From Minutocellus sp. GHC0000111 (Eukaryota), in the NCBI GenBank assembly GCA_977018835.1, contig OZ361256.1, positions 496,001-560,000 of the forward strand: a stretch of 64,000 bases of DNA. Direction: 5' to 3'. This document shows positions 1 through 47,326 of this stretch, in pieces (the stretch's first letter is position 1; each line of letters begins with the position of its first letter). Position numbers and translations under genes: made by a program. Below the pieces are notes generated by a model, which did not search any database, was not told the origin of the DNA, and was given only the letters and a program-made list of their open reading frames with translations.

Positions 1-95
1 CACGTTTATATTCTGCAAAATTTACTCAGCTATTTGAAGCTATTGAAAATTGTTTGTCAACTCCTACGAAAAGTTCTGTACCAGTATGTCTCTTA

Positions 96-998
96 TCACC
101 ACTGGCCTGGAGTACACCCATCGGCATTGTCTCTAATGGGCGAATGTTCGCCACCAGCATCCTCCACCGGGCCACCGCCGATATCACCTCCTGCATGATC
201 AATCCCAGTGGCCGACGTTAGCCACGCCATGAATTCCTTCGAATTGAGCTCGTGGTCCTCTCCCCGAGCCTTTAGCCTGGCGAATGCTGCAGCATCTACA
301 CCCTTGGCACCGACTGAGTCGATAAAGTACGAGATTTCATCAACACTGATTCGATTATTGCGATTGAGATCGATCATCTTGAACAGATCTGGGCCATGTT
401 CGCCAGTCGAGAGAAATGCATCCCAAACCAAAACCTGCAAACCTCGACGAGCATCGACTATCTTGTCGCCGCCGGTCGCAGATGAAGATCCCTCTTCGTC
501 ATCGGAGGAATCCGAAGACGACGAATCGTCAAGATTGTCCAGAATTCCTTCCAAAGCCAGGTTGACACGACGAAGTTCGGTCCCCATGCACAGCCATCGC
601 TCGAATTCTTCGGCGTCGAGGGGATGGTCCTCACCGAGTTTCTGAAGCAGGCTCAATGCCTCATCAGACACATTGGCCTTGTCGACACTTTCCATAAAGT
701 AGTTGATCTCCTCCACGTTGATGGTACCGCTCTTGTTCAGATCGAGAGATTGGAAGACCGATTCTGACGAGATGCTACCGAGGAGGTAGGCGTCCCAGAT
801 GTTTCGCTGTTCGTCACGTCGGATGTCGACAATCTTTTTGTTTTCACAGGCGCTACCGGTGGAGAAGTTGCGGGCAATTGGTGCAGCCACACCCGTCGAT
901 CGAGAGCAGCTGGTCGCTGCGAGATTTTGGCCACACGTGCTGACTCGGGAGGTCGTCTTCGAAAGGATGTTGCGGAGCATTTGTCGGCGTGCGTTCAT
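96..998 (-). CDS. EF-hand calcium-binding protein with two internally repeated domains and a probable mitochondrial presequence
   Basis: Intact 300-aa ORF. Two homologous blocks (KIVDIRR...WDAYL...DLNKSGTINVEE...EFERWL and KIVDARR...WDAFL...DLNRNNRISVDE...EFMAWL) each carry a canonical EF loop. The N-terminus is R/S/T-rich and acid-free, ending ARNFST. Confidence 0.8.
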   Translation of the reverse strand: MNARRQMLRNILSKTTSRVSTCGQNLAATSCSRSTGVAAPIARNFSTGSACENKKIVDIRRDEQRNIWDAYLLGSISSESVFQSLDLNKSGTINVEEINYFMESVDKANVSDEALSLLQKLGEDHPLDAEEFERWLCMGTELRRVNLALEGILDNLDDSSSSDSSDDEEGSSSATGGDKIVDARRGLQVLVWDAFLSTGEHGPDLFKMIDLNRNNRISVDEISYFIDSVGAKGVDAAAFARLKARGEDHELNSKEFMAWLTSATGIDHAGGDIGGGPVEDAGGEHSPIRDNADGCTPGQW

Positions 999-1513
999 CT
1001 TACCAACCAGTTGGTTTCACCAGCTCATAGTCCGGCGAATACCGGTACTACCCAGTAGCTACGTAGTAGATGAGGTGCAGCAGTTCGAGTTCACGCCGGT
1101 GCGGTGCGGCCGCATGCGGTTTTCGCATCGCGTGGGCGCGCGCTGCTTAGCCCCCGTCGCGAGCAGTCAGAGTCGAGTCAGTCTCAAAGCAGCGACAGAA
1201 TGACATGAAAAGGAAACCAACTGCCTTTCCAAGTGGCGTACCTACTAGCTACTAGTACGTAGCTAGTAGCTACGTACGTAGAGGTACGAACTCGTACGCG
1301 CTATGGTACTACGTACGTAGTAATAGTCTAGCTACTACTACGTAGGCCTACTAGAGTAGTGCCTAGGTAGTAGCAGTACGCACAATTTGCAAATTAGATC
1401 TTTGGGTGGATCTTTGGCAAAAGGAACCTCTCGAAAAAAAGCGAAGCGCCTCTCTTCAATCTTTGCATATCTTCGCCATTTTGCATCAAATTCACCAATC
1501 AAATTCAAAGACA

Positions 1514-2617
1514 ATGTCGTCCGATAACGGTCCTCTCGAAACCGAAGCCTACGTCTGTGGTGGTAAAGGCGAGAAGCTCGTTCTCAAGACCATTACGCTG
1601 CCCGCCCTCAAGGCCACGCAGGTGGAAGTCGACGTGACTTACTGCGGCCTTTGCCACACCGACATCCACATGCGCGACAACGATTGGGGAATACCCAACT
1701 ACCCTCTTGTTCTTGGCCACGAGGGCATTGCCACTGTGCGGAAGGTCGGCGATTCCGTCCGCGTCCTCAAGGTCGGTGACACCGTCGGCATCTTTTGGTG
1801 CCGCGACTCTTGCCTCGGGTGCGACCAATGCTTCGCCGGTCGTGAAAACATCTGCCAGAAGGGACACCAAGGCACTTACCTTGGACCTGCCGCCGGATGC
1901 TGGGGTAAGAATCCCCACAACGAGCATGGGGGGTGCTTCTCCAAGGTGATGCGCCTTGAGGAGCGTTTCGCCATTAAGCTACCCGATAATCTCCCTCCCG
2001 AGATTGCCTGTCCCCTCATCTGTGGTGGAGGCACCGTCTTCGAGGCCGTCGTGGACTACGTCACATCCGGCACTCGCGTTGGCATTGCCTCTATTGGAGG
2101 CCTGGGCACTGCTGCCATTCACTTTGCCAAGCTCTTCGGCGGCCACGTCACCGCCCTGAGCCGGGGCGAGGCCAAGCGAGACAAGAGCCTTGGCGCTGGA
2201 GCTGACGCGTACGAGGGTTGCCTCGGTGACGCCGATGCCATGAACGCCCTGGCCGGAACATTCGATGTCATAATCGATACCTCCCCTGCCAATGCCGATG
2301 TCGCCGCCTATCTAGCGATGCTCAAGTTCGACGGCACCTACTGCCATGTCGGCATTCCAGCTGCCACCGACATGACTTTCAAGTACGATTACATTCCCCT
2401 CATCTTCACCCAGAAGAATATCGCCGGCTCAATTGTTACCGGCACTCGTCGCATGCATCGCATGCTCAAGCTCGCCAGCGAGGAATTGGACACCTTTGCC
2501 AAGGACAAGGAGGACTGGCACGCCGAGGTCGTCCCCTTCTCTGAGGTCAACGAAGTCATGGACAAGCTCCAGTCAGGCCAAAACGACAAGACTTACCGCT
2601 ATCTGTTCAAGTGGTAA
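1514..2617 (+). CDS. Zinc-dependent NADP(H) alcohol dehydrogenase (cinnamyl-alcohol dehydrogenase / Ahr-like MDR family)
   Basis: Motifs CGLCHTD, LGHEG, structural-zinc CxxCxxCx7C (CLGCDQC...NIC), CGGGT, IGGLG and SRGEAKR. Start placed at ATG 1514 rather than the upstream GTG. Confidence 0.93.
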   Translation: MSSDNGPLETEAYVCGGKGEKLVLKTITLPALKATQVEVDVTYCGLCHTDIHMRDNDWGIPNYPLVLGHEGIATVRKVGDSVRVLKVGDTVGIFWCRDSCLGCDQCFAGRENICQKGHQGTYLGPAAGCWGKNPHNEHGGCFSKVMRLEERFAIKLPDNLPPEIACPLICGGGTVFEAVVDYVTSGTRVGIASIGGLGTAAIHFAKLFGGHVTALSRGEAKRDKSLGAGADAYEGCLGDADAMNALAGTFDVIIDTSPANADVAAYLAMLKFDGTYCHVGIPAATDMTFKYDYIPLIFTQKNIAGSIVTGTRRMHRMLKLASEELDTFAKDKEDWHAEVVPFSEVNEVMDKLQSGQNDKTYRYLFKW

Positions 2618-3004
2618 ATGATTTTGAAGGTTGTTGTGGTTACCTGCGAGGTATATTCATTTTGGATAGATTTTCCCTTTAAAAATACATGTACACTTTT
2701 AAAGCATTGGCAGTAAGCAGTAAGACTGCTACCCAGGCTAGCTGCATACAAATGTGGCTCTGCAAAGTAAAACAACACTGCACTGAGGTATGCTGTAAAT
2801 GAAATTAAAAATCATTAGGCAGATACTACTTTGCAACTTTCCTTAACCTAATCGAAGTAAATGAGTTGCATGGATCCTTTAAAATACGGTGCATTGCCCA
2901 AATCTGCTACATGGCGCTTGTATGTTATGCAAGTCAGGCCATGACTGTCCCCAAATAAATCACCAACACGTGCTGATGAAATAGGCCTCGTGCGTGTAGT
3001 ACAA

Positions 3005-3837
3005 TTACCATCCTTTCTTCCTTTGCTTGGCATCATAGCTGGCAACCGCATGGCAAGCCGACGTTAATTGGAACACATTGACTATTTGCTTCACTGCACA
3101 CGCTGGGACACAGAATAGCAACAATCCATCTCCCAATGCCTTGAGGAAAACGTCATCCTCGGTAACATGCGCCAGCCCATACAGTGCCACATATGTAAAC
3201 TCGGCCCCGACACAGCAATAACCAAAGAAGTAGTAATAGTGATAGTACCATCTCACCAAGAAGAAACGCCCCTCATTGCCATCATCCGACTTGTGATGCT
3301 GCTGCAAAGATGCTGTGGAGTACATTTGGCACCAATGCGACGATATGTCGAGCAATATCAACGACAGGAATGTCTGGCGGAGAGCGACGGGTTTAGTTTA
3401 TAATGGGCGGAGGTAAGCAAGTAACAAAGCATGATATATTTTGTCGATCTCATAACAAACCTTTGCACATATACATAGCATTGCCATTATTTGTGTGCGT
3501 TCGTTCCACTCACCAATCTGTACAGACCAGCAACGTATGTCGACCCAACCAGTGTGGCGTCGTACTCCCCAGCCAAGATGAAGAGCAGACCGGCCGTGGC
3601 GCAACGATCGGTCACCATGTCGAGCAATCCACCGTACGTGCTGCACTGATCGAATTTGCGGGCCGCCAATCCATCGAACAAATCGCCAACGAAGGAGGCA
3701 ATGTACAGCCAAAGGGCCAGGAACCACCGGTTGGGATGGAAGATCATAAGGACGAAGCTGACGATGGTCAGAATGACTCGGCCGTAACCGATGAGGTTTG
3801 GTACGTACAGGAGGACATCTCGGGCTGTTGTTGCCAT
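3005..3837 (-). CDS. PIS1: CDP-diacylglycerol--inositol 3-phosphatidyltransferase (phosphatidylinositol synthase), 2 exons (3837-3514, 3373-3005)
   Basis: VLLYVPNLIGYGR, the CDP-alcohol phosphotransferase motif DLFDGLAARKFDQCSTYGGLLDMVTDR, then LDISSHW and KQIVNVFQL. GT-AG intron 3513-3374 joins the exons in frame. Confidence 0.93.
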
Positions 3838-4211
3838 GTTTGATCAGGTAGGTTGGGGAGCGGCAATACTGCTATTGGCGTGCAAGTACCGGAAGGCGGC
3901 AATTGCTGGGCTCATTTTTGTGGTGGTGGCGTGGGTGGGCAGTGGGCAGTATACGGGTACGTACGAAACGCGTAAGCTACGTACGGTCGGATTGATCGCT
4001 CGACTCATTCGACTTAGAATCGAATGTAAGAATCTGGATCGATCGCCAATTGTGGCGCTTGGCGAGATGTTGGAACAAAGTCAGAAGTGAAAGCCTTGCG
4101 CCAGTGGCGACAAGCTGCAGGTCGAGAAAGGAATAAATTACAAGAAGAGAGGAACTTCCTTCTGACCTTTTTCTGTGGTATCTTTGCTAGTCCAATCCAT
4201 CATCCAACGAA

Positions 4212-5788
4212 ATGATCTTTGGAAGCAAGGCACTCTCTGTGGCCGTCCTCGGTGCCCTCGTTTTTAGCGACGAGGCATCGGCGGCCAGCAAGCTCAAGCG
4301 CAAGCATGGCAACAAAGCTCTTCGAAAGGCCCAACGCAAGTTGAAGGGCAGCAAAGGAACGGGCATGGTGAGCTTTGCTTCTAGGCATGTTATTATTTGA
4401 AGCTTGTGATTCTCCTTCAATGTTCACTTTGACACCGAGTTGGCTCACATACTTTTGTCTTCATCTACTTTCAATGAACAACTCATATCACGCGGAAAGG
4501 GAGGAAGCGATGTCGGCATGGCAACAAGGGCTGGGTCCGATGAAACACTTACCATTCCTGGCATGCCTGCCATCGAGCCCAGGATGATCGACGTTCCCGA
4601 TGCCGGCGGTGATGGTGGCGACGAAGTCGAAGTGGATTCTCTCGTTCAAGCTGATGCCGCGGTTTCCTGGGAATGGATTCCTGATCCGTGTGAAATTAGT
4701 GTAAGTGTGTGCCTGCCTTTCAATTGCGCTCTCATGTTGTCTCATTGCAATATGAACGATATTCTCTCATCCTAAATCCTTATCTCCCAAACCATATCCA
4801 CACATTCAGATCGACTTCACCGACAATATGTGCATGGCGAAGTATAAGTATGCTGCAGTCTCGACTTACAACCCTGCTCGTGCTTGCGTCGATGCCCTGA
4901 AATGTTACGTGACTGGCGACACCACTCAGATGACGTTTAAATGAACTGCGACCACGGACTGTGCTGGAAGCTACGGCGATTGTTTCGCGTTTAGTGACAA
5001 GGCACAGGGAGGCCGAGTTTGGATTGTTGAGAATACCGACATGTTCCAGATGAAGCTGCCTAATGTCCCTGATCCTACGTACGACAATTTGAAGTGGCAT
5101 GTAGAGAACGACCTTAAAAATGTCATGCCAATGGGCAAAACACTCTACAATGATGTGGTCGGAGTCGGTGATGAGTTCTCCATTCCCCTAAATTCTCTCA
5201 ACGCTGGCCGCCCCGAGATTGCCTACATGGCCTTTGAAAAAAAACGGCAACCTGATTTCGTTCGTAACATTCAATCCTTACAGCTGTGGCGGTGGTGACT
5301 ACAGCATCGGTGGGAGAGTCGGCAATGTCGAGATTTCTTCCTTCAAGAGTACCGAATTCGGCACCGTCACTTCACAGGTGTACATTGACAAATATGTGTA
5401 CGACGTCAAGAGCAATTGCACTGATGTTGCCTATCGAAATGATGATGCAGTAGTGTACTCGCTCGATCGCACCTTCTGTACTAGTTCATGCGGGGAGGAT
5501 AAGTAGAATTGTCCCACAGCCGAGGGATACAATCCCTTTTCGTGTGTTGTGGGTGGAAAGACGCAGTTGGGATGCGAAAGGGCAAATCAAGGTGTGCCTA
5601 GTGATTCGACGAGTATTTCTCCTGACGGAGAGGCATCGTTCGAAGACAGCATCGACGGTAAGGGCCCGGTTGACCTTCTCACAACAAAGTTCCAGCTCAA
5701 TGTAGATGCAACGGTCAGGTATCCCGAGTACTGGATCGAAAGGTCCGCCAGTGCCACCAGCCCTGAAATTGCTGTTCTAGGGTGCTAG
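4212..5788 (+). pseudogene. Secreted protein of unknown function, multi-exon, apparently disrupted
   Basis: Signal peptide (MIFGSKALSVAVLGALVFSDEASA) followed by a basic linker. Intron donors near 4369, 4701 and 4845. Frame shift at the A-run near 5240 and an in-frame TAG at 5504-5506 with the same frame continuing to 5788. Confidence 0.5.
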
Positions 5789-6089
5789 CTTGCATTCTTC
5801 GAGCAAGGAAAGAGTTCCATCTCTCAAGGTCCTCCTGCATGTGTTGTAGAAAACTTCTTTTGATGGTAGACCTATTTGATTTAAAATCGTAGATCTATTG
5901 CATTTTACTTCATGTAATGAGACTTACTATTTTTATTGCACACAAGATACATGTGTAGGATACATGTAGGGAACACAAAAATAGCGCAAGCAAGAGAAAA
6001 GGGCTCCCCCCGACCAGCTTGATCAGGCGCGTGACGGATTTTTGACTCGCCCGACCGAAAATCGAATCTGAGATATCGCCAACAATTAA

Positions 6090-6106
6090 GAGGGCGCTGT
6101 CCATAA
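6090..6106 (+). repeat. Left TIR of Kolobok copy A
   Basis: GAGGGCGCTGTCCATAA, reverse complement of 10270-10286. Confidence 0.95.
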
Positions 6107-6554
6107 CTTTTAGGAAGCCCCCAAAAAGCGTGTTTTGTGCCGTTTTTTCTTCGCACCATCGCCAAAGTTAGCACTCCAACGTGACAATGGGCTCCTCATC
6201 GAAGGCCGCCGCTCTCCACAGTGGCGAAGAGTCATCGACGTTCCTTTCAGCATTAAGTCGGAAATCCCTCCAGGAACACTTGGTTCAGAGGAACTTCGAT
6301 GAATCAACTCTCCCTCAGAAACACAGCAGTCGACGCACACATCATCGTCGGATCGACCGAAATTAGTCTCGGCCGACGCATGACCAGCATTGGTGGTGCT
6401 GGTGGGAAGACATCTTGAAGTTTTGCTGTTGGGAGGTAAGGGGATATTTGTTTGGGGTATTTTTGCACGTCTCCCTCATTTGGGGTTCTTTTTGTAAGGT
6501 TCTCATCGAAAAGCGTGTCTTGCGCCAGAACCGACACAAAACAAAAAAACAACC

Positions 6555-8828
6555 ATGGAAACATCACGTGCTAACGCCAAGGAGGCAATCCTCTCACTCT
6601 TGCTCTCATTCCCAGACGACGTCAGATGTACTTACTACACCATTGATGAGCTTGTCCGCATCTTGATGCGCGGTGGCGCATCACCGAGCTTAGAGATCTC
6701 TCTTGTTCGATCATCTCTTCAACACGTCCCAACACGACACGAGGTCAACATCCAACGACGACGTCCAGAGAAAATATCAGGCCTTGACGTTGCAAAGCCC
6801 TTCTACCGCTTCTCCAGAATAGCCGATAACGCCAGCCCACACTCTCAACGCAATGGCAAGCGATCACTGCCGACCATGCCTGAAAATTGCTTCCAGGACG
6901 ATGAAAAGCATGGGCCCCATCTCAACGCGATGCTGAAACATTGTTCCGACAAGAGCTCTTCGGGCGGTCGGTCATCTACTCCCACCGCCAACGCTACCGA
7001 TCGTCCCAACATCACCGGCGTGCAGCTCAACGGCAAAAGAATTGTGGTTGAGATGAAGCAGCTGCATGATTTCGTACAGAGTCTCCACCGATCGTGCGGC
7101 AATCTGTGTCTCTCGGCCGAGCCAGTTCGGCGTGGATTCGGCGTTACATTTGAATGGCGATGCGATAGATGCAACCAACCTTTTTCTTTTTGCACTTGGA
7201 TCGGCCAGAGGTCAGAAGTTGTGTGCCCCGGCAGAAAGCATTCTAGAAGTCAGGCTGGAATGAACTTGGAGCTGATGGAGGCAGCGGAAGATGAGGCCAT
7301 GCACGCAAGTCGCTTCATGAATTCACGAAGGCCGACATCGTCCATCCGACCGAAAAGAATGCCCGACAGGTGGAAAAGAAATGCAGAGCAGCGGCTGTTG
7401 AAGCAGCTGATGAAATCATTGACGAGAATAGGGCAAAAGCATGTGCCGCTAGCAGCAAGACTGTTGAGTTTGAACAAGGCGGCGAGATGCACACGGCGGC
7501 GGTTTTTACGGTGGCCCAAGACGGCAGCGCCCTCAAACGCGACTACGGCCATTGCTACACTGGCTCTGCTGCAGCGGTATTTGCCGTAGACAAGGAAACT
7601 GGCCTTGTTGTTGACAAGGGAATCTCTCAGGCAAGCTGCCACTGTTGCGTGAGAGCCTGCAATGCAAGATTGAGGGAGAGGCGGGAAGCCGGCAATCCAA
7701 TAACGCCGAGTGAGCTCAAAAACATGAGCAAGGATGAGATACTGGCCCTGTACGACCATGATGGCTTCTGCTGTCGCAACTCTTCCCACTCCCCCGGTGT
7801 GGCAGAGGAGCATCTGGCCGAGAATGTTGGACGGAATCTTCTGGTCGACGATGAAGGAAGCGTGCAGGCGTGTCCTCTTTTCGTTGAGAAGCACGTTGCC
7901 GATGGCGATAGCAAAGGCATTACTAGGGCAGCAGCCGCTCAGGAAGACATAGTAGGTGATGAGTTGGCTTCTGGTGTTGAGCTTTGCCGTGACTTTAATT
8001 ATCTGAGCAATTCAATTGACTCAGGCTTTCGAAAAGCATGCAAAGGAGTTGAAAATTTTAATGCCATCCCCCGACCACGCATCAATCGGATGAAACAGGG
8101 CATTTCGAAGATTACTGATCGGTACAAGCACAGCGTTCTCGATCAGCCCGATGGTGCTGTGTCCGAGGAGGAAAAACAAAGTCATCTGGCCCTCCTTCAG
8201 AAAGAACTCCAGTCCGTCGTTCGTCACCAATGTGGCATTCACACTTTTTGCACCACCAACACGTGTGATTGGATTCGCCTCAGTATTGCTCATCCTGATT
8301 GGAGTGATGGCAAGCTCGATGAGGAATGGAGCTCGGGGAATCAATTCGATGGCGACATATTGGAGATTAGTGACGACACGATTCGCAAGATGACGCTTGA
8401 AATAACCAAGAGAATCAACAAGAATACTGCCGACTCCAACTGCAAGAAGGAATCTACCACCGAGCAAGAGCGACAGCAAGCGCCTTCGAGCAGCCTTGCG
8501 AAACAGAAGCGAGCAAGACGACAAGGACTATGTGTACAAGAAGAACAGGGCCCTAGCTGCTGGTAAGGCGAAACCAGCAAAGCCTGGCCGCAAGAAGAAG
8601 ATTGACCAGCAGTGTCAGAAATGCAAGCAGCTTGGCCACACTCGGGCTGAATGTCAATGCGACGATGCTGACGACGTTGTCGTTTACGCCGGAAAGAAGC
8701 GCAGAAGCCCAGGCAGCAACAAGAAATCTGCAAGAAATAATAAGAAAGCTAAGACAAACTTCGGTGTATCGGCAAATGATGTTAGCTCTTGGATGCCGGC
8801 GATACTGAGAGAAAATGGCAGCTTGTAA
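6555..8828 (+). pseudogene. DDE transposase of Kolobok copy A, disrupted
   Basis: Motifs VAQDGSALKR, ETGLVVD, HVADGDSKG, HQCGIHTFC and a C-terminal CCHC knuckle (CQKCKQLGHTRAEC). Relative to copy B there is a 4-bp deletion near 7325 and a 251-bp deletion at ~8462 that removes STTGVEQLNG, the likely catalytic E. Confidence 0.85.
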
Positions 8829-8932
8829 ACACGTGTAAAATATTTTATCACTGTAAATAAAAATGGATTTATTGTGTGCTGTTACTCACGTGCTACGCAC
8901 ATTCTTGTTATCTACATGTGTTGAGGTAATGA

Positions 8933-10162
8933 TTATGCATTTTCCTCTTCTTCTTCCTCTTCATCTTGATGACCAGGGATGAATCCAACATATCGTTCAC
9001 CTTTATCATTTGGATAAATGAACCTAATGCGAAAGACTAGACAGGTTGGCAAGGGCTTCCGATCAAGCCAACCTCTCACATGATACACCTCAGTTGCATA
9101 GTACCAATACAGCATGTTCCTCTTCAAATTATTTGCCATGGCTTCGACTGGCATGGTGGTTGCGTAGTATTTGTCAGCGATATCCTCCAGGTCCTCCTCC
9201 GTCGGCACCAGCATTTCTTCGCAGACGCATTTCTGAAAGAAGAGTGTGCCGTACATTGAGCAGCTTCGGTTGGCGGCAGTGCAGCAAGCAGGGGGTATTG
9301 GCGGCCTCTCTCTGATCTCGTCCCAATTACCGAATGTGTCTGCCTCCGGCGCTGCCGTCGGATCATCGTCGGCTTCCTCACAAACGGCCGCAACAAGAGC
9401 ATCCGTGTCCGATCTGATCGCTGCTGATGGCCCACCATCTACCTGCAGAAGTTGGCCCATTCCAACAATATCAAAATCAACTAGTCCAATCCCAGCAGTA
9501 GAGTGTATGTCATCATATGGAGCCACATGCCATCGGTGGAACTTTGTCAATTTGATCACATGGCCCTGTTGTAGACTTCGGGCCTTTTCGGTAATTGTCA
9601 GGGCAACACGAGCGACGATAAGCTTTCCGCTTCCATCAAGCAAAGTAAGCGATGTGGTGTTGAAAGGTCGGCCGTGCGCAGCAAGAGCCGATCCAATATC
9701 GATCCGTTTCCCATGAAGTTGAAATATAGGGAAGAATTCAGGTCCGGCGTCAAACATGGGATCTTGCAATTGATCGACGATGCCGACCGTCAGCCTCAAC
9801 TTCACATCAGCCACGGACAGGTTGGTAACTACGAGGCCGGGCCGCTCAGCAGCGACATCAATATCATCCCGAACATGATACTTATCAGCGCGAGCCTCGA
9901 CTGCTTTGACAAGATGTTGAAGTGCATGGCCGACGCCGGGATTGTTCCATAATTCTCGTCCTTGTCCGTTCGGGTCGTTCTCCAACGTGACGGCGAGGCC
10001 CTCCAGTATCTCGGTAACGGCGTCTTTCGCTTTGTCCTCCGCCTTCTCTTTCTTCTTGTCAACAGGCAAAATCGGGCGACCGGAGTTATCTGTCTTGAGT
10101 TTCCGCAACCGCGTATCTGCGTTGTGGGCCGGGCCGGCACTATTATCAGCGCTGCGCTTCAT
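8933..10162 (-). CDS. Kolobok accessory protein: RPA70N-like OB fold plus KolX/P2X7-intracellular-like C-terminal domain
   Basis: Intact 409-aa ORF inside the TIRs. The C-terminal KRNMLYWYY...RKPLPTCLVFRIRFIYP...YVGF matches the KolX/P2RX7 C-terminal pattern. Residues ~124-234 follow the RPA70 N-terminal OB pattern. Confidence 0.75.
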   Translation of the reverse strand: MKRSADNSAGPAHNADTRLRKLKTDNSGRPILPVDKKKEKAEDKAKDAVTEILEGLAVTLENDPNGQGRELWNNPGVGHALQHLVKAVEARADKYHVRDDIDVAAERPGLVVTNLSVADVKLRLTVGIVDQLQDPMFDAGPEFFPIFQLHGKRIDIGSALAAHGRPFNTTSLTLLDGSGKLIVARVALTITEKARSLQQGHVIKLTKFHRWHVAPYDDIHSTAGIGLVDFDIVGMGQLLQVDGGPSAAIRSDTDALVAAVCEEADDDPTAAPEADTFGNWDEIRERPPIPPACCTAANRSCSMYGTLFFQKCVCEEMLVPTEEDLEDIADKYYATTMPVEAMANNLKRNMLYWYYATEVYHVRGWLDRKPLPTCLVFRIRFIYPNDKGERYVGFIPGHQDEEEEEEENA

Positions 10163-10269
10163 CGTAATGAAGAGGGGGCAGAGCGGCGATTCTCATGGTG
10201 GGGTCGAGCTTTTGTCATGCTTCGCTCGTCATAAGAAATAAGAATAAGGGGGATTAAAAACGGGGAAAA

Positions 10270-10286
10270 TTATGGACAGCGCCCTC
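10270..10286 (-). repeat. Right TIR of Kolobok copy A
   Basis: TTATGGACAGCGCCCTC followed by TTAA. Confidence 0.95.
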
Positions 10287-10564
10287 TTAATATCGTGTAC
10301 CCGTAGGTACCTAGGTACGAGCTCGTACGTAGGAATCCTAGGCCTACGTAGCTCGCTTGCGCTCTCGAAACGACGCACGGCGCTAACGCCCAGCTAACGT
10401 ATTTTTCGAAATTTTTCGATCGGCCGCGAGCATACCGCCCCACTCATTCTCCGCCGCCGCCGCCACTCGTACTCTCGTGTTCTCCGGTGCGGAGCGGAGC
10501 CATACCCCACTAGCTAGAGGTACTACTCTGCCTCGCTTGAAAGGCAGGCAGGGCACCAGCACCA

Positions 10565-18302: not shown

Positions 18303-21300
18303 CCTTTCGAGTTCAGAGGATTTGAAAGTGACGTGATGATGACGTATTAGAAACACGACCACACCAGACCAAAAATCCAAGCTCACTTTTTCTAACTCCG
18401 AGGAATAAATGACGGCCAAGATGGAAGTCGGGGCAAGAACCAAGTTATGGTCACCAACTTCTACATATAGTCGAGAGATATTGTGCACCAGAACCAATAA
18501 ATGTACATTATGTGATGATTTTTTTCGACATTTGCATTCCTCACCCCGGGAAAAAATACATTTTTGGAAGCACCAAATCAAAATGTAATGAATAGAAATG
18601 GACATGCTATGATAAGTTATAGCAAATCAATGACTCCATCGTCTTCATCATTTTCATCTATGTCGTCCTCAATGTCATCATCTTCGCCGGGAGCATCAAT
18701 TGGCCAGAGTGGTTCACCATCCTCTTCAGCTTCTTCCTCGGCAATTTTTGCGAGACCAGCCTTTCCCCGTCTGGTCTCCACAAGATTGTTACCGCCACGA
18801 CTTCTCTTGATGTTGTTATATATCACTGGAAGTTTTCCAAATACATTGAGAAAGGCCTCTTTTGATGCGACATTGGCCCATACTTTCATCACAGTCTTGT
18901 CAAGAGCATTCGCATCATTCTTCTGACCGCGATGCTCCTTTTCGACGGCCGACTGCAAAGACATCCAGATGCCGAGATCAAGAACATTTGTCTCGGGCGA
19001 CCGAGGAACCTGCTGGATTATCTCAATCTTATATTTGTTTTTGAGGTCCTCGGTGTACTTCTCAACTGCTTCATTGGACCCATGACCGCCGGCATTGTCC
19101 ATCATAAGTAAGACACACAACATCAGACTCCTGAATATTTTGTGGATCCCACTTCACCCAATGATGTGCGTCTCGAATCGCCTTCCCGACCTCATTCATA
19201 GTCTCCAACATCCATTTGGAGTCGCAGCTACAGTCCTTGGTAACCTTATCGCCCCGTTGATGCCGCACCCCGAGCTCAAGGTCGTCGATCTCAACCTTCA
19301 CCTTCTCTCCATTGCTGTGCTATCAGGAGTGTGTCGCTTGAGACTCGAGATCTTTTGATTGTAGCCAACAGCGGCATGCTTGCGACTTTTTGCCTGACCG
19401 TCGGATTTATAGTCCTCGTATTGAAGTTCCAATCGCTCTGTAACAAACTCAGAAAGGCCGTAGATTTCGGCAATGTGGTCGCAAAGATGGCCGGCGGTCA
19501 TGTCAGCATTCTCGTCGTCGTCGTAAATGTCGCGCCAATCTTTGTCATTTTTTAGCGCATCGTTGACCTTAGCATCTGGAGAGAAATTCTGATTACGCGT
19601 AAGCTTTTCCACCTTCTGCTCCCTGGCGACTCTCTTGATCATGATGCGCCCATTGAAATCAATGTCTTTGGTTTCATCCTTCATTGGTCGGCCAACAACT
19701 CCAAGATGCATAACTTTGACAGGGTGTCTTCTGGATCGAATTTTCGGGCTTGCCTCGGAAGCATGGATAGACGCGAGGTTCGGACTGCTTAGTTCTTCGT
19801 CAGAAAGTGGCAACATCTTGATCTTTCGTCGCCGAGTAGCAGTGTAAAACCACTTTTCATCAAGACACGCTACAGGAATGTTGGGATCGGTCGTAATGTC
19901 CTCCCACTTTTCGATCCAATCAAGTCGCTTCCTACAATGTTCGGGGGTGAGCCTCGGCTTCTCGATCGACGACTTCTCCTTACCGCCTTGCTTTTTCCAA
20001 GAGCGAAAAAGCTGAAGACGATGGAGACTAATTGTCAGCCTGTCTTCATCTGGAGCAGCTGATTTTGCGCTCATACAGTCAGCTAGCTCCTTAAAGGTTG
20101 CCATCGCACCCTTCATCCGAGTGGCATGCCGACACAGCTCGCGGAGATGTCCTGGCTCCTTCTCCTCGATCATGTCCGTGCATGCCTTCCTTCCACGAAC
20201 CTCCTTTCTGCCGATGGGATTGCCGATGCCATCAGTAAGGCTTTTGTAGAGCTGGTCTCTCCACTTGTAAAGCTGAGAACCACCGGTTGACTTGGCATAA
20301 CCGTGATCGTACGCAACTTGCCGAGACACGCGGCAGTTGCAATTTGTTGCCGGTCTTCATGCGTGCGAGTTGGGTCGCCGTGTCCCCACCAATCCGCGAG
20401 AGCCACGGCGCTGAACCGCATTCTTTCATTCGCCTGCTTTTCTTTTCTGATTGGTGTTGGTTCGGTGACGGTTGCATTGGGACGAGGAGGACGGAGCATG
20501 TCATCGTTGGCCATCCGAACAACAAAGTCGAGGCCGAGAGCGACCTTTACCTGTTCATCAATGTCACTGGAGGTGGCACAGACAACGGAAGCATCGGCTC
20601 CTCCTAAACCTTCATCATTGGGGGAGGCTGCAGCTGCTTCAGTGGCGGAAGTGTCACCAGTTCGCTTCAGCATGCTGAGGAGACTTGCTGGCATCCAACC
20701 CAGTTTCTTGGCCTCGTCGACTAGTGATTTTACTCTTGCTTCGCAATGCGCTGACTGTGCCTCCTTTCTGTGAGCTGACAACCTCTCACCTAGCTTAGTA
20801 GCTAAGACAGTCGAGCGCCCAGAGAACAGAACTTCATCGGGATTTCTTTTCTCGTGCACCTTCTGTCCCTCCGGTCCAGAGAATTTTGGGTGGTTGTCCT
20901 CCTTCTTTTTACGCAACCTGTGAGCACAAACACAAAGCGCCCTGCGTCTTGTCTTCCCTCTCGGCCGATGCGTCGACAAGTGCAACTTCAAACTACAATG
21001 CTCCTTGAGATGTTGCTGCACATCCTTCCATTTTTCCTCGTTGTGCTGTAGCTCATATACTTTCCTCCACCGACGGACTTGGAACGCAACAAGTCGGCCT
21101 CGATGAAAGCAGGGAGGACGTCTTCCCATTTCTGCCGAGAACCAACACAAATGTCGTCTTCTTTGCCGCAGGAATCGGGGGTTACTCTCCACCACAGATC
21201 CTTACCAGCCCTTCGAATGACATCTGCTGCAAAAGGAGAAAGGCCATGGGGATAGGAGGAGGGGCCGTCCTCTTCTTCGCCGACGACGGTGACGGTTTGG

Positions 21301-21771
21301 CGGGCGAATTTGACCGTGGTGGCCGCTTCTTCGTCGACGCGTTTGCGCTCGGCGATGGTGTTTTCGGCTCAGCTGCCGCCTTTGCCGCCTTCCTGGATGC
21401 CTTGGTGTTGCCTCTCTTGCTCCCTGAGAACGAAGTTCTGCTGCGTTTGTGTTTTTTGGGCGTGGTCTGGTTGGTCGTCGTCATCGTCACAAAATTTGCG
21501 GGGGTTGCGGTGAGGGTGTGCGGGGGACCAAAAAATGTATGTGATCCTGCCAGAATCTACTGGACCTGCGAATTCAGTGGATACTACTGGTCGGTGGCAA
21601 CCTACTGAATGAGCAGGTCCAGTAGACATCCACGAGTTGAGGAGCATTTGCGTTCCTCCCGAAGAGAACATCGACTAACAAAACACGTGGTGGGAAATGA
21701 GAAATGGGTGCAAGAATGACCCTTTTAGGGGTTATTGGCATGCCCTCTACAAATCCTCTGAAACCGAAAGG
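18303..21771 (-). mobile_element. IS630/Tc1/mariner-superfamily transposon, DD39D type (3469 bp), defective
   Basis: 22-bp TIRs with 2 mismatches (CCTTTCGAGTTCAGAGGATTTG at 18303; reverse complement of CCTTTCGGTTTCAGAGGATTTG ending at 21771). TA at 21772-21773 and TG at 18301-18302. Internal transposase. Confidence 0.88.
18617..21484 (-). pseudogene. DD39D mariner-like transposase, multiply frameshifted
   Basis: LDEKWFY, KVMHLGVVGRP, MDNAGGHG and QVPRSPETNVLDLGIW, with 39 residues between the second and third D. Split over at least 5 ORFs. Confidence 0.88.
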
Positions 21772-34777: not shown

Positions 34778-35137
34778 AAATTGACAAAAATCACCTCCTG
34801 CGAAGCTCCTCGAACAACTTTTTGGGCGGCCAAAGATGGCTCCCGGAAGAAACGGCAACGAAACGACAAGACCTTTCATGTAATTCCTGCTTTAAGCTCC
34901 CATCATTTATAATCCAGACCCATCTATTTTTCACCAGACAGGCCGGAAAAAGCGAACACTGCCATCACGACGAATATAACATCGAATCGAGCACGGCAGC
35001 AGCAAGAAAATTCCACTTTTTGTTGCTCAGGTTCTCACAATATCACTTGTTCCTCGCCACCAAATCAGGTATGTTGTTGATTTTGAGATAGTATTCCTTC
35101 CCTTCCAGGATTGTTAATTCGATCTACTGCCTAGGCA

Positions 35138-38136
35138 CCTTTCGAGTTCAGAGGATTTGAAAAACACGTGATGATGACGTATTAGAAACACGACCACACC
35201 AGACCAAAAATCCAAGCTCACTTTTTCTAACTCCGAGGAATTAATGACGGCCAAGATGGAAGTCGGGGCAAGAACCAAGTTATGGTCACCAACTTCTACA
35301 TATAGTCGAGAGATATTGTGCACCAGAACCAATAAATGTACATTATGTGATGATTTTTTTCGACATTTGCATTCCTCACCCCGGGAAAAAATACATTTTT
35401 GGAAGCACCAAAAATCAAAATGCAATGAATAGAAATGGACATGCTATGATAAGTTATAGCAAATCAATGACTCCATCGTCTTCATCATTTTCATCTATGT
35501 CGTCCTCAATGTCATCATCTTCGCCGGGAGCATCAATTGGCCAGAGTGGTTCACCATCCTCTTCAGCTTCTTCCTCGGCAATTTTTGCGAGAGAGACCAG
35601 CCTTTCCCCGTCTGGTCTCCACAAGATTGTTACCGCCACGACTTCTCTTGATGTTGTTATATATCACTGGAAGTTTTCCAAATACATTGAGAAAGGCCTC
35701 TTTTGATGCGACATTGGCAAATGCTTTCATCACAGTCTTGTCAAGAGCATTCGCATCATTCTTCTGACCGCGATGCTCCTTTTCGACGGCCGACTGCAAA
35801 GACATCCAGATGCCGAGATCAAGAACATTTGTCTCGGGCGACCGAGGAACCTGCTGGATTATCTCAATCTTATATTTGTTTTTGAGGTCCTCGGTGTGCT
35901 TCTCAACTGCTTCATTGGACCCATGACCGCCGGCATTGTCCATCATAAGTAAGACACACAACATCAGACTCCTGAATATTTTGTGGATCCCACTTCACCC
36001 AATGATGTGCGTCTCGAATCGCCTTCCCGACCTCATTCATAGTCTCCAACATCCATTTGGAGTCGCAGCTACAGTCCTTGGTAACCTTATCGCCCCGTTG
36101 ATGCCGCACCCCGAGCTCAAGGTCGTCGATCTCAACCTTCACCTTCTCTCCATTGCTGTGCTATCAGGAGTGTGTCGCTTGAGACTCGAGATCTTTTGAT
36201 TGTAGCCAACAGCGGCATGCTTGCGACTTTTTGCCTGACCGTCGGATTTATAGTCCTCGTATTGAAGTTCCAATCGACAAGTGCAACTTCAAACTACAAT
36301 GCTGTGTCGGCATGCCACTCGGATGAAGGGTGCGATGGCAACCTTTAAGGAGCTAGCTGACTGCATGAGCGCAAAATCAGCTACTCCAGATGAAGACAGG
36401 CTGACAATTAGTCTCCATCGTCTTCAGCTTTTTCGCTGGTGGAAAAAGCAAGGTGGTAAGGAGAAGTCGTCGATCGAGAAGCCGAGGCTCACCCCCGAAT
36501 GTTGTAGGAAGCGCCTTGATTGGATCGAAAAGTGGGAGGACATTACGACCGATCCCAACATTCCTGTAGCGTGTCTTGATGAAAAGTGGTTTTACACTGC
36601 TACTCGGCGACGAAAGATCAAGATGTTGCCACTTTCTGACGAAGAACTAAGCAGTCCGAACCTCGCGTCTATCCATGCTTCCGAGGCAAGCCCGAAAATT
36701 CGATCCAGAAGACACCCTGTCAAAGTTATGCATCTTGGAGTTGTTGGCCGACCAATGAAGGATGAAACCAAAGACGTTGATTTCAATGGGCGCATCATGA
36801 TCAAGAGAGTCGCCAGGGAGCAGAAGGTGGAAAAGCTTACGCGTAATCAGAATTTCTCTCCAGATGCTAAGGTCAACGATGCGCTAAAAAATGACAAAGA
36901 TTGGCGCGACATTTACGACGAGAATGCTGACATGACCGCCGGCCATCTTTGCGACCACATTGCCGAAATCTACGGCCTTTCTGAGTTTGTTACAGAGCGA
37001 TTGGAACTTCAATACGAGGACTATAAATCCGACGGTCAGGCAAAAAGTCGCAAGCATGCCGCTGTTGGCTACAATCAAAAGATCTCGAGTCTCAAGCGAC
37101 ACACTCCTGATAGCACAGCAATGGAGAGAAGGTGAAGGTTGAGATCGACGACCTTGAGCTCGGGGTGCGGCATCAACGGGGCGATAAGGTTACCAAGGAC
37201 TGTAGCTGCGACTCCAAATGGATGTTGGAGACTATGAATGAGGTCGGGAAGGCGATTCGAGACGCACATCATTGGGTGAAGTGGGATCCACAAAATATTC
37301 AGGAGTCTGATGTTGTGTGTCTTACTTATGATGGACAATGCCGGCGGTCATGGGTCCAATGAAGCAGTTGAGAAGCACACCGAGGACCTCAAAAACAAAT
37401 ATAAGATTGAGATAATCCAGCAGGTTCCTCGGTCGCCCGAGACAAATGTTCTTGATCTCGGCATCTGGATGTCTTTGCAGTCGGCCGTCGAAAAGGAGCA
37501 TCGCGGTCAGAAGAATGATGCGAATGCTCTTGACAAGACTGTGATGAAAGCATTTGCCAATGTCGCATCAAAAGAGGCCTTTCTCAATGTATTTGGAAAA
37601 CTTCCAGTGATATATAACAACATCAAGAGAAGTCGTGGCGGCAACAATCTTGTGGAGACCAGACGGGGAAAGGCTGGTCTCTCTCGCAAAAATTGCCGAG
37701 GAAGAAGCTGAAGAGGATGGTGAACCACTCTGGCCAATTGATGCTCCCGGCGAAGATGATGACATTGAGGACGACATAGATGAAAATGATGAAGACGATG
37801 GAGTCATTGATTTGCTATAACTTATCATAGCATGTCCATTTCTATTCATTGCATTTTGATTTTTGGTGCTTCCAAAAATGTATTTTTTCCCGGGGTGAGG
37901 AATGCAAATGTCGAAAAAAATCATCACATAATGTACATTTATTGGTTCTGGTGCACAATATCTCTCGACTATATGTAGAAGTTGGTGACCATAACTTGGT
38001 TCTTGCCCCGACTTCCATCTTGGCCGTCATTAATTCCTCGGAGTTAGAAAAAGTGAGCTTGGATTTTTGGTCTGGTGTGGTCGTGTTTCTAATACGTCAT
38101 CATCACGTCACTTTCAAATCCTCTGAACTCGAAAGG
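35138..38136. mobile_element. Fold-back derivative of the DD39D element: two 3' ends in inverted orientation
   Basis: 1139-bp inverted arms (35138-36276, 36998-38136), both starting with the TIR CCTTTCG. The spacer is transposase sequence. Flanks are CA on the left and TG on the right. Confidence 0.9.
36301..37820 (+). pseudogene. 5'-truncated, frameshifted DD39D transposase
   Basis: Same DEKWFY, MDNAGGHG and SPETNVLDLG motifs and the same frameshifts as the 18-21 kb copy, plus a 2-bp insertion near 37680. Confidence 0.85.
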
Positions 38137-38687
38137 TGCGCCCACCACCACGCAGAAAAAATGCAAACTACCTGGCCAGAAAGCCGAAGTCAGCTGATTT
38201 CTGAAAAAATCAGCTGATTAAGAGGGCGCTGTCCATAACTTTTAGGAAGCCCCCAAAATGCGTGTTTTGTGCCGTTTTTTCTTCGCACCATCGCCAAAGT
38301 TAGCACTCCAACGTGACAATGGGCTCCTCATCGAAGGCCGCCGCTCTCCACAGTGGCGAAGAGTCATCGACGTTCCTTTCAGCATTAAGTCGGAAATCCC
38401 TCCAGGAACACTTGGTTCAGAGGAACTTCGATGAATCAACTCTCCCTCAGAAACACAACAGTCGACGCACACATCATCGTCGGATCGACCGAAATTAGTC
38501 TCGGCCGACGCATGACCAGCATTGGTGGTGCTGGTGGGAAGACATCTTGAAGTTTTGCTGTTGGGAGGTAAGGGGATATTTGTTTGGGGTATTTTTGCAC
38601 GTCTCCCTCATTTGGGGTTCTTTTTGTAAGGTTCTCATTGAAAAGCGTGTCTTGCGCCAGAACCGACACAAAACAAAAAAAACAACC

Positions 38688-41001
38688 ATGGAAACATCAC
38701 GTGCTAACGCCAAGGAGGCAATCCTCTCACTCTTGCTCTCATTCCCAGACGACGTCAGATGTGCTTGCTACACTGTTGATGAGCTTGTCCGTATCTTGAT
38801 GCGCGGTGGCGCATCGCCGAGCTTAGAGATCTCTCTTGTTCGATCATCTCTTCAACACGTCCCAACACGACACGAGGTCAACATCCAACGACGACGTCCA
38901 GAGAAAATATCAGGCCTTGACGTTGCAAAGCCCTTCTACCGCTTCTCCAGAACAGCCGATAACGCCAGCCCACGCTCTCAACGCAATGACAAGCGATCAC
39001 TGCCGACCACACCTGAAAATTACTTCCAGGACGATGAAAAGCATGGGCCCCATCTCAACGCGATGCTGAAACATTGTTCCGACAAGAACTCTTCGGGCGG
39101 TCGGTCATCTGCTCCCACCGCCAACGCTACCGATCGTCCCAACATCACCGGCGTGCAGCTCAACGGCAAAAGAATTGTGGTTGAGATGAAGCAGCTGTGT
39201 GATTTCGCACAGAGTCTCCACCGATCGTGCGGCAATCTGTGTCTCTCGGCCGAGCCAGTTCGGCGTGGATTCGGCGTTACATTTGAATGGCGATGCGATA
39301 GATGCAACCAACCTTTTTCTTTTTGCACTTGGATCGGCCAGAGGTCAGAAGTTGTGTGCCCCGGCAGAAAGCATTCTAGAAGTCAGGCTGGAATGAACTT
39401 GGAGCTGATGGAGGCAGCGGAAGATGAGGCCATGTGCGCAAGTCGCTTCATGAATTTCTGCACGAAGGCCGACATCGTCCATCCGACCGAAAAGAATGCC
39501 CGACAGGTGGAAAAGAAATGCAGAGCAGCGGCCATTGAAGCAGCTGATGAAATCATTGACGAGAATAGGGCAAAAGCATGTGCCGCTAGCAGCAAGACTG
39601 TTGAGTTTGAACAAGGCGGCGAGATGCACACGGCGGCGGTGGTTGCGGTGGCCCAAGACGGCAGCGCCCTCAAACGCGACTACGGCCATTGCTACACTGG
39701 CTCTGCTGCAGCGGTATTTGCCGTAGACAAGGAAACTGGCCTTGTTGTTGACAAGGGAATCTCTCAGGCAAGCTGCCACTATTGCGTGAGAGCCTGCAAT
39801 GCAAGATTGAGGGAGAGGCGGGAAGCCGGCAATCCAATAACGCCGAGTGAGCTCAAAAACATGAGCAAGGATGAGATGCTGGCCCTGTACGACCATGATG
39901 GCTTCTGCTATCGCAACTCTTCCTACTCCCCCGGTGTGGCAGAGGAGCATCTGGCCGAGAATGTTGGGAGTTGAAAATTTTAATGCCATCCCCCGACCAC
40001 GCATCAATCGGATGAAACAGGACATTTCGAAGATTACTGATCGGTACAAGCACAGCGTTCTCGATCAGCCCGATGGTGCTGTGTCCGAGGAGGAAAAACA
40101 AAGTCGTCTGGCCCTCCTTCAGAAAGAACTCCAGTCCGTCGTTCGTCACCAATGTGGCATTCACACTTTTTGCACCACCAACACGTGTGATTGGATTCGC
40201 CTCAGCATTGCTCATCCTGATTGGAGTGATGGCAAGCTCGATGAGGAATGGAGCTCGGGGAATCAATTCGATGGCGACATATTGGAGATTAGTGACGACA
40301 CGATTCGCAAGATGACGCTTGAAATAACCAAGAGAATCAACAAGAATACTGCCGACTCCAACTGCAAGAAGGAATCTACCACCGGCGTCGAACAGCTCAA
40401 CGGGATGGTGACGAAGTTCACGATGGGGAAAAGGCCGAATTTGACTGCTTCAGACGCCTACCCAAATGCAACAAGTAGAGCCGCTGGCCACAAGTCACTG
40501 GGTACGGAATTCAATGAGCGAGTTCTTGGAAAGTTGGGATCGAGGGATTCTCCTACCCGAAAAGATGGATTCGATGCAATTGACCGGAAGCTCGAGGGCG
40601 ACCTTGCGCGTAAGCGCACCGATGAGTACAAAAAGAGCAAGAGCGACAGCAAGCGCCTTCGAGCAGCCTTGCGAAACAGAAGCGAGAAAGACGACAAGGA
40701 CTATGTGTACAAGAAGAACAGGGCCCTAGCTGCTGGTAAGGCGAAACCAGCAAAGCCTGGCCGCAAGAAGAAGATTGACCAGCAGTGTCAGAAATGCAAG
40801 CAGCTTGGCCACACTCGGGCTGAATGTCAATGCGACGATGCTGACGACGTTGTCGTTTACGCCGGAAAGAAGCGCAGAAGCCCAGGCAGCAACAAGAAAT
40901 CTGCAAGAAATAATGAGAAAGCTAAGACAAACTTCGGTGTATCGGCAAATGATGTTAGCTCTTGGATGCCGGCGATACTGAGAGAAAATGGCAGCTTGTA
41001 A
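38688..41001 (+). pseudogene. DDE transposase of Kolobok copy B, disrupted
   Basis: A 215-bp deletion at ~39967 (copy A 7831-8045) removes HVADGDSKG and shifts the frame. STTGVEQLNG is retained. Confidence 0.85.
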
Positions 41002-41105
41002 ACACGTGTAAAATATTTTATCACTGTAAATAAAAATGGATTTATTGTGTGCTGTTACTCACGTGCTACGCACATTCTTGTTATCTACATGTGTTGAGGT
41101 AATGA

Positions 41106-42335
41106 TTATGCATTTTCCTCTTCTTCTTCCTCTTCATCTTGATGACCAGGGATGAATCCAACATATCGTTCACCTTTATCATTTGGATAAATGAACCTAA
41201 TGCAAAAGACTAGACAGGTTGGCAAGGGCTTCCGATCAAGCCAACCTCTCACATGATACACCTCAGTTGCATAGTACCAATACAGCATGTTCCTCTTCAA
41301 ATTATTTGCCATGGCTTCGACTGGCATGGTGGTTGCGTAGTATTTGTCAGCGATATCCTCCAGGTCCTCCTCCGTCGGCACCAGCATTTCTTCGCAGACG
41401 CATTTCTGAAAGAAGAGTGTGCCGTACATTGAGCAGCTTCGGTTGGCGGCAGTGCAGCAAGCAGGGGGTATTGGCGGCCTCTCTCTGGTCTCGTCCCAAT
41501 TACCGAATGTGTCTGCCTCCGGCGCTGCCGTCGGATCATCGTCGGCTTCCTCACAAACGGCCGCAACAAGAGCATCCGTGTCCGATCTGATCGCTGCTGA
41601 TGGCCAACCATCTACCTGCAGAAGTTGGCCCATTCCAACAATATCAAAATCAACTAGTCCAATCCCAGCAGTAGAGTGTATGTCATCATATGGAGCCACA
41701 TGCCATCGGTGGAACTTTGTCAATTTGATCACATGGCCCTGTTGTAGACTTCGGGCCTTTTCGGTAATTTTCAGGGCAACACGAGCGACGATAAGCTTTC
41801 CGCTTCCATCAAGCAAAGTAAGCGATGTGGTGTTGAAAGGTCGGCCGTGCGCAGCAAGAGCCGATCCAATATCGATCCGTTTCCCATGAAGTTGAAATAT
41901 AGGGAAGAATTCAGGTCCGGCGTCAAACATGGGATCTTGCAATTGATCGACGATGCCGACCGTCAGCCTCAACTTCACATCAGCCACGGACAGGTTGGTA
42001 ACTACGAGGCCGGGCCGCTCAGCAGCGACATCAATATCATCCCGAACATGATACTTATCAGCGCGAGCCTCGACTGCTTTGACAAGATGTTGAAGTGCAT
42101 GGCCGACGCCGGGATTGTTCCATAATTCTCGTCCTTGTCCGTTCGGGTCGTTCTCCAACGTGACGGCGAGGCCCCCCAGTATCTCGGGAACGGCGTCTTT
42201 CGCTTTGTCCTCCGCCTTCTCTTTCTTCTTGTCAACAGGCAAAATCGGGCGACCGGAGTTATCTGTCTTGAGTTTCCGCAACCGCGTATCTGCGTTGTGG
42301 GCCGGGCCGGCACTATTATCAGCGCTGCGCTTCAT
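41106..42335 (-). CDS. Kolobok accessory protein (OB fold + KolX-like), copy B
   Basis: Intact 409-aa ORF with 6 amino-acid differences from copy A. Confidence 0.75.
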   Translation of the reverse strand: MKRSADNSAGPAHNADTRLRKLKTDNSGRPILPVDKKKEKAEDKAKDAVPEILGGLAVTLENDPNGQGRELWNNPGVGHALQHLVKAVEARADKYHVRDDIDVAAERPGLVVTNLSVADVKLRLTVGIVDQLQDPMFDAGPEFFPIFQLHGKRIDIGSALAAHGRPFNTTSLTLLDGSGKLIVARVALKITEKARSLQQGHVIKLTKFHRWHVAPYDDIHSTAGIGLVDFDIVGMGQLLQVDGWPSAAIRSDTDALVAAVCEEADDDPTAAPEADTFGNWDETRERPPIPPACCTAANRSCSMYGTLFFQKCVCEEMLVPTEEDLEDIADKYYATTMPVEAMANNLKRNMLYWYYATEVYHVRGWLDRKPLPTCLVFCIRFIYPNDKGERYVGFIPGHQDEEEEEEENA

Positions 42336-42638
42336 CGTAATGAAGAGGGGGCAGAGCGGCGATTCTCATGGTGGGGTCGAGTTTTTGTCATGCTTCGCTC
42401 GTCATAAGAAATAAGAATAAGGGGGATTAAAAACGGGGAAAATTATGGACAGCGCCCTCTTAATCAGCCGACCGACAACGCGGGCGAAGCAAGCGAAACG
42501 GTACTAGTACCCATGACCCAAGAATCGGCTGATTGAAATCGACACCGTCACTCCCGCGTCTGCAACCCGCACGCGTACGCGCGAGCTCCAAAAAAGCAAA
42601 AAGAGCACAACACAATAGTCGCTACTTGTAGGCACCCG

Positions 42639-46776: not shown

Positions 46777-47326
46777 GCGCTTGCCTGGGTACGACGTATA
46801 TGTAATGTACGTCGATCTAGAGCTATGGATGTTTGATCTAGTAGAGATACTTTGCAGGTAAACTTAGACACGAAACCTCAAGATTTTTCTATCTTGAGGG
46901 CCAGCAACCAATTCATTTTGGTAGATCTAGAGATCTATCTAAGTCAGTTTGCAAGGAAGCTGTACAAGAGATCACGACTGCATTTTGTTCAAAGCTCGAG
47001 AGGAGAGCCAGCTAGCTAGGGTCGCTGAGGAGGCAAAGAATCATTTTGAGACTGGCAGGTGCTCTGATAGTGACGGATTCTCGGCTCGTCATTCGAGTCG
47101 AGAACATGGTTACTACGAGCAGTTTAGAGGCTTCAGAAGTGGACCTGAACGGCGCTATGAGTAATTGTTTGCGGTTGCCTTTGCTGGTTCTACTTTCTTC
47201 ACTTCTCATTGACTGACTATGTCGATCCTATAAACGTCTACGTAGAAAATTGTCATGCATGTACCGGTAGATCTAGAGGTCTGGGCGAAGGACATCCTTA
47301 TTTGTTGGTCATGTCAGTAGTCCATG

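Follow-up and report, generated by a model that had tools for sequence, protein, structure and literature searches.

Judged against related transposases, the copies of a Kolobok-type DNA transposon in the 64-kb window (the whole stretch of DNA analysed here) have been changed from TA to TG or CA, a direction opposite to that of RIP and of CpG decay. The changes fall on both strands, mostly before a pyrimidine, and probably reflect adenine deamination by a host enzyme acting on the DNA of selected mobile stretches. Their load falls from 5′ to 3′ along the transposase gene and is near zero in the second gene of the element (ORF2), in which a few copies carry near-saturating, all-or-none bursts.

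The element is about 4.2 kb long and occurs twice in the window, with 17-bp inverted ends and TTAA duplications. Copy A (6090..10286, forward strand) has its TTAA flanks at 6086-6089 and 10287-10290, and its terminal inverted repeats start with GA and end with TC; copy B, likewise TTAA-flanked, lies at 38222..42459 on the same strand, and both copies have 5′-RR...YY-3′ termini. The transposase (gene at 6555..8828, forward strand, in copy A) matches the profile PF20700 above the cut-off, and ORF2 runs convergently to it in both copies (8933..10162, 409 amino acids, in copy A and 41106..42335 in copy B, both on the reverse strand). The hallmarks of Kolobok given in PMC9587614 are TTAA duplication, 5′-RR...YY-3′ ends and a DxxH motif, and Kol0-like Kolobok are described there as two-gene elements with a diatom example. 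Because the TTAA sites, inverted ends, PF20700 match and second ORF fit these features, we assign the element to Kolobok; with the Kol0-like elements it shares TTAA, RR...YY ends, DxxH and a second gene. ORF2 of copy A is without a Pfam or PDB match; as a candidate for KolX, the second gene of Kol0, it has no PDB match better than E 0.74, and its nearest named relative in a protein similarity look-up is a Minutocellus protein. In an 842-aa transposase copy (P0013), the motifs QDGS, DGD, DFNH and TTGVE are all present and are the putative catalytic motifs of a DDE transposase with C/DxxH.

Both transposases in the window are broken by indels. That of copy A is frameshifted, with losses of 4 and 251 nt, and that of copy B lacks the 215 nt corresponding to 7830-8044, a deletion that removes two of the putative catalytic motifs, DGD and DFNH. 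The deletion type is a large non-autonomous subfamily, with a depth of 4762 in run X1 as against 4221 for the intact form. In the same run, the long contigs of the element have a depth of about 11,000 and the flanks one of 145, a contrast that suggests some tens of Kolobok copies, depth being no copy number. A second Kolobok-like family is represented by P0179, whose ORF2 is 52% identical and retains 15 Tyr; its contig is as long as those of members of the first family. The window DNA is intron-poor, and its ADH gene has its nearest named homologues in Helicotheca, Coscinodiscus, Grammatophora, Licmophora and Skeletonema; together with the Minutocellus relative of ORF2, these make a diatom the likely host.

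We compared the two copies by a global alignment of 6090-10286 with 38222-42459, calling a site TA-class if it holds a TA/TG, TA/CA or CA/TG pair. Across 6555-8828 there are 33 substituted columns, which make 27 sites when the six double changes (CA/TG at five, GG/TT at one) are each scored once; 19 of the 27 sites (24 columns) are TA-class, comprising 9 TA/TG, 5 TA/CA and 5 CA/TG. This is exactly the count given in a first, sequence-only reading of this DNA, and the alignment also contains all four of the variant pairs quoted there, the five sites with CA in one copy and TG in the other, and 0 substitutions that make a stop. Its caveat that the CA/TG sites could stem from CpG decay can be dropped, as 0.008 such doubles are expected and 5 were found. 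TA-class changes account for 24 of the 30 transitions, against 20% expected (binomial P = 3e-12), and 19 of 56 visible TA sites in the transposase vary as against 3 of 132 CG sites. The TA sites that differ number 17 of 35 visible in 6555-7829, 2 of 21 in 7830-8828 and 0 of 59 in 8829-10291. Contigs (as distinct from raw reads) from 3 studies, covering 4 public runs, bear the same transposase variants, so the variants are not assembly errors; at 7740-7741, where the window has TA, CA and TG alleles are both found as well in runs X5 and X11. As a separate observation, GG-to-TT (CC-to-AA) doubles occur at 7504-7505 and 18878-18879, with a TA-class site 3 nt away in both cases, and at the latter the proteins P0169 and P0170 suggest that the TA change preceded the double.

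The direction of change was read from a family set of 17 sequences (15 listed of 170 cluster-member proteins and the two window copies), with the protein relatives P0001 (86% identity) and P0004 (57%) as outgroups; a search of metagenome contigs for a DNA-level relative of the element gave 596 pattern matches, 0 of them confirmed. P0015, which is the copy A ORF, and frameshifted tails below 70% local identity were left out. The family counts are protein-based, registering non-synonymous changes with codons borrowed from the window copies. Among the 17 sequences, 45 TA-class sites vary; the outgroups are TA-compatible at 32, contrary at 3 and uninformative at 10, and at 21 of the 32 the outgroup residue fits TA alone. 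Because related transposases keep TA at 32 of 35 informative sites, we read the direction as TA to TG or CA. An outgroup with CG, CA or TG at the variable sites had been named beforehand as contrary evidence; at the protein level it was met with at only 3 of 35, aa 42, 365 and 484, where the outgroup has CA. At three further sites P0001 needs TA and the family is fixed for another state; at one fixed site the reverse holds. The set of ancestral TA sites, which is partly defined by variation itself, omits aa 42, 365 and 484, and codon 320 is lost to the outgroup table through a neighbouring double change.

The proposal that restoring TA gives Tyr in sensible contexts is borne out by P0001, which reads ENYFQ, QLYD, NLYL, AMYA and CYRNSSYSP, several of these Tyr being retained in P0004. 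The expected turnover of Tyr to His or Cys is likewise found, 16 of the 18 Tyr of P0001 being His or Cys in some or all family copies, with changes of Ile, Thr and Val seen besides. Both TG and CA states occur at 14 sites among the 17 sequences, which agrees with the earlier view that copies were hit independently. Of 519 character pairs, 254 are incompatible under the four-gamete test. Copies thus recombine or take repeated hits, and recombination between them may make the hits look more numerous than they were.

In the family transposases, changes have occurred at 51 of 75 TAY strand-sites as against 8 of 38 TAR (P = 3e-6), and the two strands are hit alike (129/463 cells on the coding strand, 79/274 on the template strand); together with the TA-compatible outgroups, this upholds a change from TA to TG or CA on either strand. 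For ORF2 the counts register amino-acid changes only, and the codons used are those of the window copies. In 49 of 52 distinct ORF2 records, TA changes amount together to 4 in 2036 cells and ordinary changes to 61, and the ORF2 of copy B has 0 TA-class changes relative to the family majority. The other three are hypermutated, with 25/56 (P0025), 14/38 (P0197) and 5/17 (P0205) TA cells changed; P0197 and P0205, which cover different halves of ORF2 and come from contigs of equal length, probably represent a single copy. The changes in the three hypermutated records take in 43 of 81 TAY cells, 1 of 30 TAR cells and 2 of 656 non-TA adenines, with AAN cells changed at 1 of 197, and TAC (22/40) and TAT (21/41) are both affected. 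At TA lie 44 of the 46 A:T-to-G:C changes and 0 transversions. Cases of an adjacent adenine altered along with a TA ("bystander" changes) are few. P0025 has 10 of its 11 Tyr codons altered, with the strands in mixed order (12 runs versus 13 expected). The same TA is often changed on opposite strands in P0025 and in P0197/P0205, and the events in these copies are therefore independent.

Along the transposase, the proportion of TAY cells changed is 38, 27, 17 and 4% for aa 1-250, 251-430, 431-600 and 601-842, respectively. TA singletons number 8 in 284 cells in aa 431-842 versus 1 in 840 in ORF2 (P = 1e-4). The sequence-only reading had suggested a possible "reverse RIP" defence, which, taken as RIP-like, would have repetition as its trigger. 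This part is not supported, because ORF2 is as repeated as the transposase gene and is spared in 49 of 52 records; repetition alone is thus no trigger and, for the same reason, homology sensing is not indicated.

The contrast between the 5′ half of the transposase and ORF2 could also arise from selection, or from exchange with a few saturated copies, under one and the same process. As an account of the gradient only, this is a serious possibility, although the lesser one. Tyr residues common to both outgroups (aa 332, 336, 408 and 413) are mostly kept, and Tyr 298 and 370 are almost all gone from the family copies; homoplasy is heavy in the family, and saturated donor copies exist, as seen for ORF2. 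Three observations weigh on the other side. First, six copies resembling the 215-nt-deletion type lack DGD and DFNH and yet show 23 TA-class differences (25 rows minus 2 other changes). Second, the transposases of copies A and B are both broken, yet their 3′ half has 0 of 59 TA differences. Third, the singletons themselves differ between aa 431-842 and ORF2. Selection may contribute to the gradient, and we rank targeting ahead of it as the likelier cause. More speculatively, and with less claim to belief than selection, an adenine editor of diatoms might be aimed at the transposase transcription unit, loading near its 5′ end, fading over about 2 kb in the manner of antibody hypermutation, sparing the neighbouring gene and separately saturating copies in silenced domains.

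TA-class changes make up 1 of the 16 transitions listed in low-depth DNA, as against 24 of 30 in the transposases (P = 1e-6) and 5 of 8 listed in short high-depth repeats outside them; the low-copy control consists of the best 40 of 124 rows by support plus 6 flank rows. In this small sample from one window, TA changes are confined to repeats, as had been supposed. At one short high-depth repeat (47105..47217), 3 of 4 listed transitions are TA-class. Composition points the same way for RTAY, whose observed/expected ratio is 0.24-0.33 in the transposase 5′ half versus 0.79-0.94 in gene-rich stretches; synonymous TA in the transposase 5′ half and in host genes (15/79 versus 159/623) does not differ significantly (P = 0.27). 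TA as a whole has a ratio of 0.59 across the window, and CG one near 1 in the elements. Background mutation in P. tricornutum is GC-to-AT biased (PMC6604790). Surviving RTAY and YTAR number 1 versus 28 in 28000-29700 and 4 versus 21 in 22000-24500, the reverse of the gene-rich stretch 1-6000 (80 versus 39), and these two blocks are likely older, saturated hypermutated DNA.

The TA-class signature appears also in a second, mariner-like family. An element at 18303..21607 (reverse strand), which has no Pfam match and which we take from its motifs to be a Mariner/Tc1-like DDE element, has 8 of its 10 transitions relative to the copy at 36301-38136 in the TA class. Its 42 differences from the relative P0166 comprise 11 residues with TA in P0166 and TG or CA here, 1 reverse case and 30 others. 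At 35135..38139 lies a palindromic derivative of the family, with two 1142-bp arms (99.65%) from one mariner-like end. Site 37642 is the single internal difference between the arms: the second arm reads TG there and both the sister arm and the copy at 18791 read TA, so that three copies give the direction. Kolobok copy B is inserted 80 bp beyond this palindrome.

Some other features of the window are recorded here in their own right. Between the stretches 21143-21607 and 44556-45011 (reverse strand) there are 7 substitutions and 9 indels, the indels measuring 2-9 nt and being interpreted as tandem duplications, and duplications of AA, GAGA and TCGTCG likewise separate the 18-kb and 35-38-kb mariner-like copies; staggered-break fill-in and slippage are candidate readings of such small duplications. 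Two ORFs at 42639-44649, one of them with a weak tyrosine-recombinase match (PF00589, E 0.002, below the cut-off), possibly represent a Crypton-like element split by a mariner-like fragment. A coiled-coil ORF at 57866-59200 carries an 84-bp tandem repeat.

We favor an enzyme that makes a miscoding base, because the restriction to transitions, the saturation, the two-sided context and the bursts all fit such an activity. The putative host enzyme would deaminate adenine in DNA within selected transposon stretches to hypoxanthine, which would then be read as guanine on copying. A change on either strand of a TA would remove the target on the other, so that some copies would be left with CA and others with TG. 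Targeting would depend on chromatin or transcription state rather than on homology sensing, and the process would be of the same kind as in Bigelowiella natans (see below). Loss of DNMT5a de-represses young diatom transposons (PMC9998398), and DNMT5-linked silencing is a candidate targeting route. A Pfam profile scan of 26 ORFs in the 64-kb window found no deaminase.

Several other mechanisms could, in principle, produce some of these features. Sequence reads an A-to-G change and a T-to-C change of the partner base alike, and strand symmetry makes A-to-G in TAY identical to T-to-C in 5′-RTA-3′. A repeat-directed thymine modification of the 5-hydroxymethyl- or 5-formyluracil type that pairs with G could thus leave the same, purely transitional, signature, and in dinoflagellates 5hmU is enriched in repeats. 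We consider this unlikely, as a literature search gave, among the papers listed, no sign of such a base in diatoms and the near-saturation seen in P0025 (10/11 Tyr codons) demands a strongly miscoding lesion. Still less probable is that, when methylated or broken copies are repaired, transposon DNA is resynthesised by an error-prone, Pol eta-like polymerase with a WA hotspot. Mutations by Pol eta extend to AA and include transversions, whereas in the burst copies AA is nearly spared (1/197 AAN cells) and transversions at TA number 0. What speaks for such a polymerase is that WA is a known A/T hotspot of somatic hypermutation (PMC6423074), that both strands are changed, that the 5′-to-3′ gradient resembles transcription-linked targeting, and that small tandem duplications and GG-to-TT doubles are present in the same repeats. 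Two further routes were set aside. AMT1-type 6mA at ApT marks active genes (PMC12695648), yet TAC and TAT are changed about equally; and RNA editing with back-copying disagrees with template-strand hits equal to those on the coding strand, in an element without an RNA stage.

A genome-wide TA mutation bias, unselected in dead transposons, is very improbable: TA has an observed/expected ratio of 0.59 over the window and synonymous TA is similar in host genes, but the listed low-copy transitions (1/16 TA-class versus 24/30) and the all-or-none spread among ORF2 records already contradict it in the present sample. Ordinary C-to-T change read backwards (RIP-like CpA to TpA plus CpG decay) has almost nothing left to commend it, since some CG-to-CA/TG changes (3/132 CG sites) and outgroup CA at 3 sites stand against CA/TG doubles at more than chance, elements that are TA-depleted rather than enriched, a CG ratio near 1 and an outgroup polarity (TA at 32/35) that refutes it unless both relatives are themselves derived.

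Any putative defence effect of the TA changes would be leaky, because stops cannot arise and derived states are common to many copies; the Kolobok family has stayed abundant. The preference for TAY, the use of both strands and the restriction to transitions provide a fingerprint for an enzyme hunt, and a natural DNA adenine deaminase, if true, would matter to genome-defence biology and to base editing. As a practical warning, consensus sequences, ages and dN/dS of diatom transposons may be skewed at TA sites.

Among known systems, RIP of ascomycetes has in common with the process described here dinucleotide-specific transitions, action on both strands, bursts and mobile DNA as its target; in contrast, RIP is C-to-T and creates TpA and stops, whereas the process in the window removes TpA without stops. 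In laboratory TadA adenine base editors, a tRNA deaminase fold acts on DNA A, and the substrate of bacterial TadA is UAC. Amphioxus ADAT2/3 provides a precedent for such a fold turning A to I in DNA, although BjADAT2, a natural DNA A-deaminase, prefers GAA rather than TAY and deaminates C as well (PMC10354150).

The sequence-only reading knew of no described pathway of this kind. A 2026 preprint by Mettrop et al. (bioRxiv 10.64898/2026.01.13.699255) describes one, reporting TpA-to-TpG/CpA change in integrated NCLDV and virophage DNA of Bigelowiella natans, active in some lineages but not in others, restricted to foreign or mobile DNA and, measured per generation in mutation-accumulation lines, about 1000-fold over background. 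The process is attributed there, as a proposal, to an ADAT2-like DNA deaminase, and transposons are suspected, from composition, to be further targets. A literature search, with subscription journals outside it, found no paper in which TpA hypermutation is brought together with diatoms and transposons. The two cases have in common that changes are almost only A:T-to-G:C at TpA (here 44/46 in the burst copies and 24/30 between copies A and B), that TpG and CpA products both occur (here 14 dual-state sites, with the strands equal), and that mobile or foreign DNA alone is affected (here, in a small sample from one window, 1/16 listed in low-depth DNA versus 5/8 in short repeats and 24/30 in the transposases). 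The on/off behavior of Bigelowiella lineages may find an analogy in the copies studied here, 3 of 52 ORF2 records being hit and 49 spared. They differ in that Bigelowiella is a rhizarian whose single-copy viral regions span 25-186 kb, and ours is likely a diatom, with multi-copy DNA transposons; because the target there is single-copy, that case too argues against repetition as the trigger. Rates were measured there in mutation-accumulation lines, and direction is inferred here from outgroups. The 3′-pyrimidine preference is seen here, and the word "trinucleotide" is absent from the main text of the preprint, whose supplements may hold flanking-base data; the difference in load between the two genes within a single 4-kb element is also unlike the account given in that main text. 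The window case is thus a further instance of a recently described TpA process, not a new kind, to which it adds polarised multi-copy evidence from a young family, all-or-none bursts and the 5′-to-3′ gradient in the transposase. The TpA mutator has so far been described in print from a single rhizarian alga; its likely occurrence in another SAR lineage, where young DNA transposons give direct and polarised evidence, suggests that this way of mutating mobile DNA is widespread among algae.
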